A stretch of DNA of 64,000 nucleotides, taken from Escherichia coli. GTDB taxonomy: Bacteria; Pseudomonadota; Gammaproteobacteria; Enterobacterales; Enterobacteriaceae. The position numbers were made by a program, and so were the translations under genes. The DNA is taken from NCBI RefSeq assembly GCF_044324785.1, contig NZ_CP172127.1. One strand, written 5' to 3'. Of this stretch, positions 17,724 to 37,967 are shown piece by piece (the first letter of the stretch is position 1; every line of letters starts with the position of its first letter). The notes beneath the pieces are model-generated. The model was not told where the DNA came from and searched no databases. It saw only the letters and a list, made by a program, of their open reading frames with translations.

Positions 17724-18392
17724 TCCTTCCTCAATCTTGAGTAACCCCGTCGTTGAAGGGTTACTCAATTCATCCTGATTATACGCACTGCCATGGTGCA
17801 ACTGCTTCAAATTAAAACTCTGGTCTGACTTCAAATAATTATCATATTATTTATTTGCGTAACGGGATATCAGAAAAAGATATTTAGCCCATTAATTTAT
17901 TAGGATGTTTACATCGGATTTGTGATTAAGTGTGGTATTATTTATTAGCGAAACGTTTCTCTCTTGATTTTTTTGCGCATTCATCAATTTTTCTTATTTT
18001 AAATTTACAATACCTTTGGCGATTGACTTCTCTTTGGGGTGATTGATAGCCGTTAACTGACTGTTTTATGAGAAAAAGTGATATAACTTTTTATTCATTG
18101 CATAGCAGAAAATGTGATATTGCACGCACTATGTAATAACTTCTCCCATTGGCCTGGAACAACTGAACTTATTGAACTATGTTAGAAAATACGTCAGTTT
18201 AAGTATCTGCCTGAACTGGCAAGGTTAAGCACAATGATATATCGGCGCGTATTCCGTTGCATAAGTGTGCAAAAAAAGTGGAAGACGTATCGAGATTTGT
18301 GCGTCTGATCGAGACATGTTTAAAAATGGCTTGCCATAATTAACGTTGTATGTGATAACAGATTTCGGGTTAAACGAGGTACAGTTCTGTTT

Positions 18393-18536
18393 ATGTGTGG
18401 CATTTTCAGTAAAGAAGTCCTGAGTAAACACGTTGACGTTGAATACCGCTTCTCTGCCGAGCCTTATATTGGTGCCTCATGCAGTAATGTGTCAGTTTTA
18501 TCTATGTTATGCCTGCGGGCGAAGAAAACAATCTAA
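18393..18536 (+). CDS. yobF: Small protein YobF (47 aa), co-transcribed with cspC
   Basis: Hand translation [47 protein letters not shown]; stop 12 nt before the cspC start. Confidence 0.8.
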
Positions 18537-18548
18537 GGAATTTTTCAA

Positions 18549-18758
18549 ATGGCAAAGATTAAAGGTCAGGTTAAGTGGTTCAACGAGTCTAAAGGTTTTG
18601 GCTTCATTACTCCGGCTGATGGCAGCAAAGACGTGTTCGTACACTTCTCTGCTATCCAGGGTAATGGTTTCAAAACTCTGGCTGAAGGTCAGAACGTTGA
18701 GTTCGAAATTCAGGACGGTCAGAAAGGTCCGGCAGCTGTTAACGTAACAGCTATCTGA
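18549..18758 (+). CDS. cspC: Cold-shock-family protein CspC
   Basis: 69-aa [72 protein letters not shown] with RNP1/RNP2 motifs. Confidence 0.95.
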
Positions 18759-18803
18759 TCGAATCCACTGATCTGAAGTGTGAATACGCTTCAATCTCGC
18801 TAT

Positions 18804-18830
18804 AAAGCCTCGTCGAATGCGAGGCTTTTT
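18804..18830 (+). terminator. Intrinsic terminator after cspC
   Basis: aaagcctcg-tcgaatg-cgaggctttttt hairpin plus T-run. Confidence 0.8.
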
Positions 18831-18923
18831 ACTTTGCTTTCTCTTCGCTCCAGTCGTTCGGATATTTGCCCGCCGCGTGATTCGCGTTACACTTGCGGCC
18901 TTTAGTATCCTGCCGGAGTTGTC

Positions 18924-19733
18924 ATGTCGTTTTCCTGTCCACTTTGCCATCAGCCTCTTTCGCGTGAAAAAAACAGCTATATCTGTCCCCAGCGACATCA
19001 GTTTGATATGGCGAAAGAAGGGTATGTCAATCTGCTGCCCGTTCAGCATAAACGGTCTCGTGATCCGGGCGACAGCGCGGAAATGATGCAAGCACGCCGC
19101 GCATTCTTAGATGCCGGACATTATCAGCCGCTGCGTGATGCAATTGTCGCTCAACTGCGGGAACGGCTTGATGAAAAGGCCACAGCGGTGCTGGATATTG
19201 GCTGTGGTGAAGGGTATTACACACACGCATTTGCCGATGCGCTGCCCGAAATCACCACGTTTGGCCTGGATGTCTCGAAGGTAGCGATAAAAGCGGCGGC
19301 GAAACGCTATCCGCAGGTCACTTTTTGTGTTGCTTCCAGCCACCGTTTGCCGTTTTCCGATACCAGTATGGACGCCATAATACGTATTTACGCGCCGTGT
19401 AAAGCAGAAGAATTAGCGCGAGTAGTGAAGCCTGGCGGTTGGGTCATTACTGCCACGCCGGGACCGCGACATTTGATGGAGCTGAAGGGGCTGATTTACA
19501 ATGAAGTACATCTTCATGCACCACATGCAGAACAACTGGAAGGTTTTACATTACAGCAGAGTGGTGAGTTGTGTTATCCGATGCGTCTTCGCGGTGACGA
19601 AGCCGTCGCATTATTGCAGATGACGCCGTTTGCCTGGCGTGCGAAGTCAGAAGTCTGGCAAACACTGGCAGCAAAAGAAGTGTTCGACTGCCAGACGGAC
19701 TTTAATATTCACCTCTGGCAGCGTTCTTATTAA
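18924..19733 (+). CDS. rlmA: 23S rRNA m1G745 methyltransferase RlmA
   Basis: 269-aa ORF with N-terminal Cys4 zinc motif (CPLCHQ...CPQRH) and SAM-binding DIGCGEG motif. Confidence 0.9.
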
Positions 19734-20296
19734 CCGTGGAAGTGCGTCCAGAGGATCTGGACGCCGATGCCGATCAGTACCAGCCCACCGAGAATTTCCG
19801 CTTTTTTCCCAATAATTGAGCCGATAAAGCGACCAACCATCATCCCTAATGTCGACATAATCAAGGTTGCACAACCAATGGCCAATGCGGTCGCGATAAT
19901 GTTGACCTGCAGAAAGGCGAGACCAACACCCACAGCCATGGCATCCAGGCTGGTGGCAATCGCGGTGGTTACCAGTAGCCAGAAACCGTGTCGACGGCGC
20001 GGTTCTTGATCTTCATCATCTGCGCCACGAAAACCCTCAATAATCATTCGCCCGCCGAGGAATATCAGCAGCACAAACGCAATCCAGTGGTTCCATTCAA
20101 GGACAAACCGGCTGGCTAACATGCCCATTCCCCAGCCGATCAGCGGCGTCAGGGTTTCGACGGCACCAAAAATAAGGCCGGTTCGCAACGCTTCAGAAAA
20201 TTTCGGTTTATGGAGGGTGGCACCTTTACCGATTGATGCAGCAAATGCATCCATCGACATACCAAACGCAAGAAGAACAGTAGCAGTGATATTCAT
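19730..20296 (-). CDS. mntP: Manganese efflux pump MntP
   Basis: Track ORF 19730..20350 trimmed to [25 protein letters not shown]... (188 aa); stop codon overlaps the rlmA stop in a TTAA tetranucleotide. Confidence 0.85.
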
Positions 20297-20525
20297 GACA
20301 ACGTCCTGACCGGGGTATCCATAAAACACATCATCGCCCCCAGCAAACATGCATACATGAACGACAAACCGCGATGGTTTTCGCGTTCATGCAGGCATAG
20401 CGATTGATGTGCATATGGTCTCGCCTGACTGAAAGTGTTCAGTCCGTACGTGCCACGTTTTGCAACGAGTATGTTGACACGTACATTTCCGGAATCTGGA
20501 AATCGGCTACTCCCCAAATGAGGGC
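20297..20525 (-). ncRNA. mntP 5' leader containing yybP-ykoY-type Mn2+ riboswitch
   Basis: Minus-strand leader contains the hallmark motif TTGGGGAGTAGCC (plus-strand 20507-20519 region) and an ...AGACCATATGCACATC... segment; known long Mn-responsive mntP leader. Confidence 0.6.
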
Positions 20526-20661
20526 GCAACCTTAACATATTTTGAGAATATAAAACAACTGTTGGAATATATTATTTCATTGCTTTATTGATAACGATTT
20601 TCATTTAGATTTATATATCAATGAAACGTTAAAATAAATAACAAATAAGGGAAGGGGTAAT

Positions 20662-20718
20662 ATAGCCTAAGCTATGTCTGATTATTAAAAATACACTAAA
20701 CATAGCTTTGGCTAAATT
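20662..20718. promoter_or_regulatory. Two MntR-box-like palindromes upstream of the mntP leader
   Basis: ATAGCCTAAGCTAT (perfect 5-bp arms) at 20662-20675 and AAACATAGCTTTGGCTAAATT at about 20698-20718, resembling the AAACATAGC..GCTATGTTT MntR operator. Confidence 0.45.
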
Positions 20719-20724
20719 GATAAC

Positions 20725-21183
20725 TTATTGAGTTGAAACGAGAAGCTTATAAATTTTTTCCAGATCGTCGATATTTCGAACGCGGATTAACAGCCGACGC
20801 TGTTCTAATTGCATCACCAACACGCCATCTTCCGACAAGTTCATCGCTTTGATTCGGCTATATTCAATCCAGACATTGGCGAAGAAAAAACCTTTTTGTT
20901 TAAAGATGATCTTCGGAACGCGGATCCAGAATATATAAAAACCCATCAGAGCCAGTGCACTTAATAACCATGTTGTTATTAGCGCGCCATGATTCGTGAC
21001 GTTGTTATAGATAAGAATGACAATCAATCCGACGAAGATAACGCTATCGATGCGACCACGCCGGAGCAAAGGAATTGCCAGCAGAGTGGGGCCGTTACGG
21101 CGGGGCATGATGAACTGATCGTAGATCGCGAAGGCCAGGAGTGCGGCGATGAAAAGAATCAGTACCAGGTCCGTGATTGTCAT
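20725..21183 (-). CDS. yobD: Inner membrane protein YobD (UPF0266)
   Basis: 152-aa hydrophobic [43 protein letters not shown]... Confidence 0.85.
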
Positions 21184-36236: not shown

Positions 36237-37922
36237 TTGAAGAAGGTTTGGCTTAACCGTTATCCCGCGGACGTTCCGACGGAGATCAACCCTGACCGTT
36301 ATCAATCTCTGGTAGATATGTTTGAGCAGTCGGTCGCGCGCTACGCCGATCAACCCGCGTTTGTGAATATGGGGGAGGTGATGACCTTCCGCAAACTGGA
36401 AGAACGCAGTCGCGCGTTTGCCGCTTATTTGCAACAAGGGTTGGGACTGAAGAAAGGCGATCGCGTTGCGTTGATGATGCCTAATTTATTGCAATATCCG
36501 GTGGCGCTGTTTGGCATTTTGCGTGCCGGGATGATTGTCGTAAACGTTAACCCGTTGTATACCCCGCGTGAACTTGAGCATCAGCTTAACGATAGCGGCG
36601 CATCGGCGATTGTTATCGTGTCTAACTTTGCCCACACTCTGGAAAAAGTGGTTGATAAAACCGCCGTTCAGCACGTAATTCTGACCCGTATGGGCGATCA
36701 GCTATCTACGGCAAAAGGCACGGTAGTCAATTTCGTTGTTAAATACATCAAGCGTCTGGTGCCGAAATACCATCTGCCAGATGCCATTTCATTTCGTAGC
36801 GCCCTGCACAACGGCTACCGGATGCAGTACGTCAAACCCGAACTGGTGCCGGAAGATTTAGCTTTCCTGCAATACACCGGCGGTACCACTGGTGTGGCGA
36901 AAGGCGCGATGCTGACTCACCGCAATATGCTGGCGAACCTGGAACAGGTTAACGCGACCTATGGTCCGCTGTTGCATCCGGGCAAAGAGCTGGTGGTGAC
37001 GGCGCTGCCGCTGTATCACATTTTTGCACTGACCATTAACTGCCTGCTGTTTATCGAACTGGGTGGGCAGAACCTGCTTATCACTAATCCGCGCGATATT
37101 CCAGGGTTGGTAAAAGAGTTAGCGAAATATCCGTTTACCGCTATCACTGGCGTTAACACCTTGTTCAATGCGTTGCTGAACAATAAAGAGTTCCAGCAGC
37201 TGGATTTCTCCAGTCTGCATCTTTCCGCAGGCGGAGGGATGCCTGTTCAGCAAGTGGTGGCAGAACGTTGGGTGAAACTGACTGGACAGTATCTGCTGGA
37301 AGGTTATGGCCTGACCGAGTGTGCGCCGCTGGTCAGCGTTAACCCGTATGATATTGATTATCATAGTGGTAGCATCGGTTTGCCGGTGCCATCGACGGAA
37401 GCCAAACTGGTGGATGACGACGACAACGAAGTACCACCGGGTCAACCGGGTGAGCTTTGTGTCAAAGGACCGCAGGTGATGCTGGGTTACTGGCAGCGTC
37501 CGGATGCTACCGATGAAATCATCAAAAATGGCTGGTTACACACCGGCGACATCGCGGTGATGGATGAAGAAGGATTCCTGCGCATTGTCGATCGTAAAAA
37601 AGACATGATTCTGGTTTCCGGTTTTAACGTCTATCCCAACGAGATTGAAGATGTCGTCATGCAGCATCCTGGCGTACAGGAAGTCGCGGCTGTTGGCGTA
37701 CCTTCCGGCTCCAGTGGTGAAGCGGTGAAAATCTTCGTAGTGAAAAAAGATCCATCGCTTACCGAAGAGTCACTGGTGACTTTTTGCCGCCGTCAGCTCA
37801 CGGGCTACAAAGTACCGAAGCTGGTGGAGTTTCGTGATGAGTTACCGAAATCTAACGTCGGAAAAATTTTGCGACGAGAATTACGTGACGAAGCGCGCGG
37901 CAAAGTGGACAATAAAGCCTGA
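36237..37922 (+). CDS. fadD: Long-chain fatty acid-CoA ligase FadD (TTG start)
   Basis: Track ORF 36171..37922 trimmed to TTG-initiated (M)[25 protein letters not shown]... (561 aa); AMP-binding motif [11 protein letters not shown] present. Confidence 0.9.
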
Positions 37923-37940
37923 GCGTTAAGTCAGTCGTCA

Positions 37941-37967
37941 GACGCCGGTTAATCCGGCGTTTTTTTT
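37941..37967 (+). terminator. Intrinsic terminator after fadD
   Basis: acgccgg-ttaat-ccggcgt hairpin followed by TTTTTTT. Confidence 0.85.

Follow-up and report, generated by a model that had tools for sequence, protein, structure and literature searches.

MntR-type operators and a yybP-ykoY aptamer in the yobD-mntP spacer of Escherichia coli, a region that very probably senses manganese twice

Locus and Genomic Context

The stretch of DNA analysed here (the window, 64 kb) carries, on the minus strand and in this order, manY, manZ, yobD (20725-21183), a spacer of 428 nt and mntP, with rlmA convergent on the plus strand. The open reading frame upstream of the spacer encodes YobD, a DUF986 protein. 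The one downstream matches the NCBIfam equivalog NF008546, "manganese efflux pump MntP," with 413 bits (cut-off 214), and the RefSeq annotation of identical DNA likewise gives mntP.

19730..20296, minus strand: mntP coding sequence, with its ATG at 20296 and its stop at 19730; the regulated gene, whose product is a Mn2+ efflux pump of 188 aa

Locus, gene order and MntP family are those of the mntP (yebN) region of E. coli K-12, from which the window differs by strain-level SNPs only. Over the 601 bases around the leader, many E. coli chromosomes match the window with 100% identity, and 5422 of the 5426 complete E. coli genomes contain this segment. In comparison with K-12 MG1655, the yobD-mntP spacer contains eight single-base differences, which leave the cores of the MntR boxes as well as the L1, L3 and closing motifs of the aptamer untouched. 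Four of them fall within the expression platform (20372, 20368, 20363, and 20302), and two others change the loop of P4 (20437) and the initial base of the box 1 22-mer (20719). MntP-like starts are present 3' of the aptamer in 14 out of 15 Enterobacterales loci examined, and the remaining one (L077) ends too near the aptamer to show one.

MntR Operators

Two palindromes are located at the far end of the spacer. Box 1 begins 5 nt past the yobD stop codon (20725-20727).

20698..20719, minus strand: distal MntR operator (box 1), CAATTTAGCCAAAGCTATGTTT, with its centre approximately at -187 from the putative transcription start
20658..20679, minus strand: proximal MntR operator (box 2), AGACATAGCTTAGGCTATATTA, with its centre approximately at -147 from the putative transcription start

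The initial annotation had described these palindromes as resembling MntR operators and had placed them about 370-420 nt upstream of mntP, adjoining the yobD stop. Both are present exactly as quoted when read on the plus strand, i.e., ATAGCCTAAGCTAT at 20662-20675 and AAACATAGCTTTGGCTAAATT at 20698-20718, and their centres are 372 and 412 nt away from the mntP ATG (20296). They are of the inverted-repeat type of known MntR boxes, AAACATAGC-N4-GCTATGTTT. The core pattern TAGC-N4-GCTA occurs only twice in the 64 kb, at 20663-20674 and 20703-20714, 40 bp apart, where 0.44 occurrences would be expected in the window. When the window was scored with a palindromised matrix derived solely from the three K-12 boxes of mntH and mntS, box 2 ranked first with 23.7 bits and box 1 second with 22.1 bits, whilst the next, unrelated site scored 14.6 bits and the best of 30 shuffles 17.6 bits. 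Thus, the resemblance to MntR operators stands with a matrix that is independent of the locus, and the same elements are footprinted by conservation across the Enterobacteriaceae.

This conservation was evident in genome loci of Citrobacter and Enterobacter, where the boxes are found approximately at -151 and -194 from the GGGG of L1 with different spacers and flanks. Metagenome contigs, when searched as plain DNA with a pattern excluding Escherichia, yielded 87 distinct upstream regions with 68 distinct box combinations. Both boxes were found at fixed positions in 62 of these 68 Enterobacteriaceae variants, with box 1 at -191 to -196 from L1, and box 2 was found in 66 of them. The conservation of ATAGC and GCTATAT in box 2 is 85% or higher, and the column-wise footprint of 88 sequences shows islands of ATAGC and GCTAT twice. 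The N4 spacers vary freely among the 68 variants, with all four bases being used; fixed cores combined with free spacers are the signature of a protein-binding site. The centre-to-centre spacing of the boxes is 41-45 bp in the metagenomic variants vs. 40 bp in E. coli, and this 40-45 bp range argues against strict helical phasing. In E. albertii (L054), box 1 has a 5-nt spacer (TAGCCAAAAGCTA) and falls below the matrix threshold, with box 2 being kept; in Enterobacter sp. Bisph1 (L058), box 1 is lost altogether and, again, box 2 is kept.

No MntR-type boxes were found at -150/-194 in Providencia, Arsenophonus, Photorhabdus, Serratia oryzae, Proteus, and Xenorhabdus (loci L022, L029, L032, L082, L101, and L122), all of which have kept the riboswitch and mntP. 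Judged from these comparisons, the RNA sensor at mntP is more widely conserved, i.e., across the Enterobacterales, than the paired MntR boxes, which are confined to the Enterobacteriaceae. This distribution of the paired boxes suggests that the protein layer is a later addition.

MntR is known to activate mntP (PMC8632737), and the native mntP promoter and 5' UTR bear both MntR-mediated and riboswitch-mediated regulation (PMC4361602). The legend of Fig. 1A in a further paper marks MntR sites in the mntP promoter (PMC9806134). The two boxes in the window probably correspond to the published MntR sites, an identification that was made via such secondary sources and not by site coordinates. The primary paper on MntR footprinting at E. 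coli mntP (yebN) is said to be that of Waters et al. from 2011.

An alternative in which the palindromes are more than protein operators, and chiefly or also supply the two arms of one stem-loop that ends the yobD transcript as a terminator or stabiliser, or of a cruciform in the DNA, is improbable. The segment 20658-20719 (minus strand) is indeed a long inverted repeat, which is predicted to form a hairpin from 5 nt past the yobD stop onwards (-22.6 kcal/mol, z = -4.6), and hairpin-type Rfam noise matches were found at 20648-20729 on both strands; however, similar palindromes complement each other automatically, no U-tract follows the stem, some lineages without box 1 still keep box 2, and the cores of the palindromes match independent MntR boxes. 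Complementarity between the two N4 spacers of a genome does exceed that of permuted pairs (2.10 vs. 1.40 of 4 positions), and the observed value was reached in 0 of 5000 permutations of the 68 variants in a test that ignores shared ancestry. Yet, spacer pairing amounts to approximately 50%, far less than a maintained helix would have, pairing in the flanks is as expected by chance (41 of 70 vs. ~39), and a signal seen in seven species (19/28; 8 of 5040 permutations) shrank in the 68 variants. With its weak effect and uncontrolled phylogeny, the complementarity of the spacers is no evidence for a maintained helix. Marginally less probable still is the combined reading that both MntR operators also serve as stem-loop arms at the end of yobD or in a cruciform, with their non-contacted spacers being kept partly complementary through selection or homogenisation by template switching. 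If the stem-loop existed, it would couple the 3' end of yobD to the Mn-responsive enhancer of mntP.

Promoter Region

Between the MntR boxes and the leader, three further elements were distinguished.

20529..20558, minus strand: putative core promoter, with -35 TTGTTT (20553-20558), an 18-nt spacer and extended -10 TGtTAAGGT (20529-20537)
20589..20608, minus strand: Fur-box-like element AAATGAAAATCGTTATCA, with its centre approximately at -78 and 14 out of 19 matches to the Fur consensus
20625..20632, minus strand: conserved island TTAACGTT between box 2 and the Fur-like element, with the palindromic core AACGTT

The putative promoter is nearly invariant in 10 Enterobacteriaceae, and its segment TTGTTTTAT (20550-20558) is conserved in the 88 sequences. 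A scanner for the sigma-70 consensus gave no call at this position, and the assignment of the -35 and -10 hexamers is presumptive. Transcription would start at 20521, as deduced from the numbering of A11 in L1 and A48 in L3 (PMC12153347). Such numbering fits only if +1 is 20521, and the position of the promoter agrees with this start, which results in a leader of 225 nt. We take this to be the published length of the mntP leader as well.

The Fur-like island (20589-20606) is the longest conserved one between the MntR boxes and the promoter, with at least 85% conservation in the 88 Enterobacteriaceae sequences. The mntP promoter is also subject to the action of Fur (PMC8632737, PMC11647493), and H-NS repression of mntP is relieved by MntR and Fur (PMC8632737). 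The DNA at 20537-20736 contains 72-82% AT. In the third island, the conservation of TTAAC (20628-20632) reaches 85% or more in the same 88 sequences, which are distinct upstream regions from outside Escherichia, and the island is also visible in alignment A3.

The yybP-ykoY Aptamer

The first half of the leader contains all elements of a yybP-ykoY aptamer of the four-way-junction type.

20412..20520, minus strand: yybP-ykoY Mn2+ aptamer, four-way junction (RF00080 match, fold, and covariation)
20514-20520 with 20412-20418, minus strand: P1.1
20508-20513, minus strand: L1
20505-20507 with 20423-20425, minus strand: P1.2
20485-20503, minus strand: P2
20446-20484, minus strand: P3.1/L3/P3.2, with L3 ACAUACU at 20468-20474
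20427-20444, minus strand: P4, the fourth hairpin (fold)
20419-20422, minus strand: 3' strand of L1, GAGA

The hallmark motif of the class, which had been noticed in the initial annotation, was found at 20505-20517 (minus strand) as TTGGGGAGTAGCC. It is unique in the 64 kb even when one mismatch is allowed, where 0.02 matches are expected from shuffles. The leader thereby contains the conserved L1 strand GGGGAGUAG of the class. Within the P3 leg, the L3 strand UCAACAUAC is present in the form of GTCAACATACT at 20468-20478, and the closing strand at the 3' side, G(C/A)RAGACC, in the form of GGCGAGACC at 20417-20425. The aptamer is located in the 5' leader of a gene for a membrane protein involved in metal homeostasis, i.e., mntP.

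Folding of the window leader as a single sequence gives P2, P3, and P4. For comparison, species-representative genomes were searched as plain DNA for GGGGAGTAG-N20-50-TCAACATAC, which yielded 120 loci in Proteobacteria, Cyanobacteria, Firmicutes, and other phyla. The closing motif [GCA][AG]AGAC[CT] was present 3' of the signature in 114 distinct leaders from many phyla. At 223 of 228 positions in these leaders, the two bases after GUAG complement the two that precede the closing motif, an alignment-free demonstration of P1.2, with pairs as diverse as CC/GG, UC/GA, CU/AG, CA/UG, and others. RNAalifold, when applied to an alignment of 61 sequences with pairwise identities of at most 78% and including that of the window, finds P1.1, P1.2, P2, P3.1, and P3.2, and 21 of their 27 pairs vary in a compensatory manner. 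In this alignment, 90.8% of the cells are paired, whereas sliding the partners by 1-3 columns leaves 30-44%. Covariation scored 0.652 vs. ~0.12, with none of 500 shuffles reaching 0.652. Thus, the architecture of two legs, P1.1-L1-P1.2-P2 and P3.1-L3-P3.2, meeting at a junction is supported by covariation, and the window sequence forms every helix. With the L1, L3 and 3' closing motifs in place and five core helices independently recovered and covarying, the proposed membership of the yybP-ykoY class is borne out.

In the literature, the mntP leader is a Mn-dependent translational riboswitch of the yybP-ykoY class (PMC9603457, PMC12153347), and its response to Mn2+ has been documented with reporter fusions, ITC and co-transcriptional probing (PMC9603457; PMC11647493; PMC12153347). 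A four-way junction has been described for mntP and a three-way junction for alx (PMC12153347). An earlier publication on the regulation of mntP and its riboswitch is reportedly that of Dambach et al. from 2015.

The covariance model of the family behaved less well. RF00080 ("Manganese") was absent from the results of an Rfam scan of the whole window at the gathering threshold. A scan of 20200-20800 with permissive filters did return it at 20427-20523 (minus strand) with 41.9 bits and E = 6e-10, whilst the gathering score is 45. The initial annotation had proposed to abandon the aptamer in case of a score below threshold on this strand; taken literally, 41.9 vs. 45 bits is such a score, but with an E-value of 6e-10 we do not accept it as a refutation, and the criterion is too strict. 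Among orthologous leaders, RF00080 scores were 35.5 bits in E. albertii, 40.1 in Enterobacter, and 52.4 in Citrobacter, with 60-101 bits being found in Betaproteobacteria; Escherichia-type leaders score 35-42 bits vs. the required 45 (the scored loci of the Escherichia type and related ones include L054, L069, and L033). Since orthologous, functionally characterised leaders of the Escherichia type straddle the cut-off, the shortfall is a property of the model. In the printed alignment to RF00080 of release 15, approximately 70 positions of the last hairpin are deleted and the alignment ends at 20427, so that the conserved 3' strand GGCGAGACC adds no score; the 3' GCGAGACC strand of the Escherichia mntP aptamer lies outside the RF00080 alignment. 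We therefore judge the sub-threshold score to be an artefact of the fit of the model to the enterobacterial subclass rather than a sign that the aptamer is absent. The RefSeq records of the locus (PGAP and K-12) contain no riboswitch feature because the RF00080 score is below the gathering cut-off. Scans with RF00080 that rely on the cut-off will under-call the Escherichia-type subclass of mntP aptamers, even though it has been validated experimentally.

Expression Platform

The remainder of the leader, between the aptamer and the start codon, constitutes the expression platform.

20297..20411, minus strand: expression platform with a long helix, the switch partner, a hairpin adjacent to the Shine-Dalgarno (SD) sequence, and the SD sequence
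20319-20323, minus strand: switch partner UAUGG for the 3' strand of P1.1, CCAUA (20414-20418)
20338-20344 with 20309-20315, minus strand: platform hairpin GCUGGGG:CCCCGGU, just upstream of the SD sequence
20304-20307, minus strand: SD sequence AGGA

In the unconstrained fold of the whole leader (z = -4.1), CCAUA pairs with UAUGG, with one long helix in between. The CCAUA:UAUGG pairing is present in 95% of the cells in an alignment of 13 Enterobacterales leaders; as both strands are invariant, this reflects conservation and not covariation. The hairpin GCUGGGG:CCCCGGU is 93% paired with compensatory changes, and its covariation score was reached by none of 500 shuffles. The published platform consists of a single helix, with a "riboswitching point" at ~205 nt and with P1.1 and L1 being disrupted in the absence of Mn (PMC12153347). 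The modelled fold, with CCAUA:UAUGG and the long helix, agrees with this description.

Enforcing P1.1 and P1.2 in the equilibrium model did not open the SD sequence, of which the probability of being unpaired decreased from 0.23 to 0.10; switching has been published as co-transcriptional. In the published probing, no clear Mn-dependent change was seen at the ribosome-binding site, which was described as dynamic, with co-transcriptional switching (PMC12153347). An OFF state of minimum free energy in which the SD sequence pairs with the 5' strand of P2 was not adopted; this pairing is 75% conserved with weak covariation. Also, the L1 strand AGUAGC (20506-20511) complements GCUACU in codons 5-7 of mntP (20279-20284, minus strand), and the unconstrained fold contains a wider helix between L1 and the coding region, of which 85% of the cells are paired in the 13 leaders. 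Neither the pairing of the SD sequence with P2 nor that of L1 with codons 5-7 was adopted, because conservation is weak and other requirements constrain both sides. As the two sides of the L1-to-coding pairing are fixed by the L1 motif and the protein sequence, respectively, this pairing is no evidence of function.

The platform of Escherichia and Citrobacter contains an extra segment of approximately 50-60 nt (~20350-20405, minus strand; columns 164-213 of alignment A2), which Enterobacter, Mixta, Serratia, Proteus, Providencia, and Photorhabdus lack. The tip of the long platform helix is made up of this segment, and within it is the only terminator-like hairpin of the leader (20370-20385).

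A model in which mntP is controlled mainly by an intrinsic terminator in the platform, made up of this hairpin and a GUUUGUCGUU tail, instead of by translation and Rho, must be considered very unlikely. A consensus scan did report one terminator-like site at these positions, but its stem has only five pairs, its U-tract is interrupted, and chance alone would give ~0.4 sites of this kind in the region. Moreover, the site is within the segment found only in Escherichia and Citrobacter, whereas Enterobacter, Serratia, Proteus, and others keep the riboswitch without it. Published data indicate translational control combined with Rho-dependent termination (PMC11647493, PMC12153347), and, in the absence of Rho, mainly the run-off transcript is obtained (PMC11647493). 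For these reasons, i.e., the short stem, the broken U-tract, the lineage-limited segment and the published control by Rho and translation, an intrinsic terminator was rejected as the main mechanism. Rho terminates transcription within the mntP leader, and this termination is partly relieved by Mn (PMC11647493).

Comparison with Related Systems

The E. coli alx riboswitch resembles the mntP leader in that it belongs to the yybP-ykoY family, acts at the translational level and controls a manganese exporter (PMC12153347). However, the alx leader is built around a three-way junction, its L3 is divergent, its platform contains an intrinsic terminator and its response is linked to pH (PMC12153347), whereas the leader in the window contains the fourth hairpin P4 (20427-20444) and an L3 of the mntP type, UCAACAUAC.

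At the DNA level, the operators of mntH and mntS in E. coli share with those of mntP the sequence (A/T)TAGC-N4-GCTA(T/A) and A/T-rich flanks; mntH has one box, AAACATAGCAAAGGCTATGTTT, and mntS has two adjacent ones. Their positions differ considerably. The mntH box is found ~12 bp and the mntS boxes ~55-95 bp before the start codon, whilst the mntP boxes are located ~147 and ~187 bp upstream of the transcription start, and the centre-to-centre distance is 19 bp for the mntS boxes vs. 40 bp for those of mntP. Also the outcome differs, as mntH and mntS are repressed by MntR (PMC8632737) and mntP is activated.

In Bacillus subtilis, Mn2+-loaded MntR is described as repressing importers and activating the exporters mneP and mneS via multiple upstream sites (PMC8632737; PMC11275975). 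E. coli mntP shares the logic of MntR activating an exporter from multiple upstream sites. In contrast, the operator sequence of mneP and mneS is different, the exporters belong to the CDF family, and cooperative recruitment has been proposed in B. subtilis vs. relief of H-NS repression in E. coli (PMC8632737).

Manganese Sensing by Protein and RNA

With a high degree of confidence, the spacer can be regarded as the native regulatory region of E. coli mntP, in which Mn is sensed twice, i.e., by MntR at the level of the DNA and by the riboswitch at the level of the RNA. The mntP promoter is weak and embedded in very AT-rich DNA; dimers of MntR loaded with Mn2+ would bind the two (A/T)TAGC-N4-GCTA(T/A) operators, centred ~147 and ~187 bp upstream of it, and would thereby raise transcription. 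Most likely, activation would be achieved by relieving silencing by H-NS, together with Fur, and not by contact with RNA polymerase. Such an anti-silencing mode fits the distance of the boxes (-147 and -187), the AT richness of the tract and the variation of box spacing by 5 bp better than a fixed contact with RNA polymerase does, and we infer that mntP is activated in this mode.

In the transcript, the first ~110 nt of the 225-nt leader would fold into the four-way-junction aptamer, in which Mn2+ bound between L1 and L3 would lock the "switch" helix P1.1. In the absence of Mn2+, CCAUA would be captured by UAUGG, which would result in poor initiation of translation and termination of the untranslated leader by Rho. 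In its presence, translation could begin, and Rho-dependent termination would be partly suppressed.

The motifs, the helices and their covariation, the match of the operators to MntR boxes, and the conservation of the operators, the Fur-like box and the promoter were obtained here; the binding of Mn2+, the actions of MntR, Fur, and H-NS, and termination by Rho are taken from the literature. That the aptamer-like sequence and the palindromes are a chance resemblance without function is barely conceivable, since the RF00080 score under the gathering threshold and the missing RefSeq annotation are set against the E-value of 6e-10, the uniqueness of the motifs, the strong covariation, the conservation across genera and an extensive experimental literature on the leader, by which this possibility was already refuted.

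The dual sensing of Mn by protein and RNA, as put forward in the initial annotation, has been reported for exactly this locus (PMC4361602, PMC8632737, PMC11647493, PMC12153347), and the combination of activation by MntR, a translational yybP-ykoY riboswitch and Rho-dependent termination in the leader is already published (PMC11647493; PMC12153347). The earlier observation and its interpretation are thus supported as correct, and the finding is real, ordinary and known, adding no new biology. The mntP gene is the textbook example of a single gene at which a protein and an RNA both sense the same metal, and it has been dissected down to the level of co-transcriptional folding.

Additional Features of the Window

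An in-frame ATG at 20350 would lengthen MntP by 18 residues (region 20297-20350, minus strand), and upstream in-frame ATGs without intervening stops are also present in Enterobacter, Mixta, and Providencia (L069, L071, L098, and L022). These ATGs are probably a by-product of the conserved RNA sequence proximal to the SD sequence.

Elsewhere in the window, Rfam matches above the gathering threshold, at 2740-2884, 18373-18833, and 37881-37966, represent the antisense overlapping pair SraC/RyeA (minus strand) and SdsR/RyeB (plus strand), the cspA-thermoregulator, and sroD (plus strand). The match to the cspA-thermoregulator model covers the leader and coding region of yobF-cspC on the plus strand.
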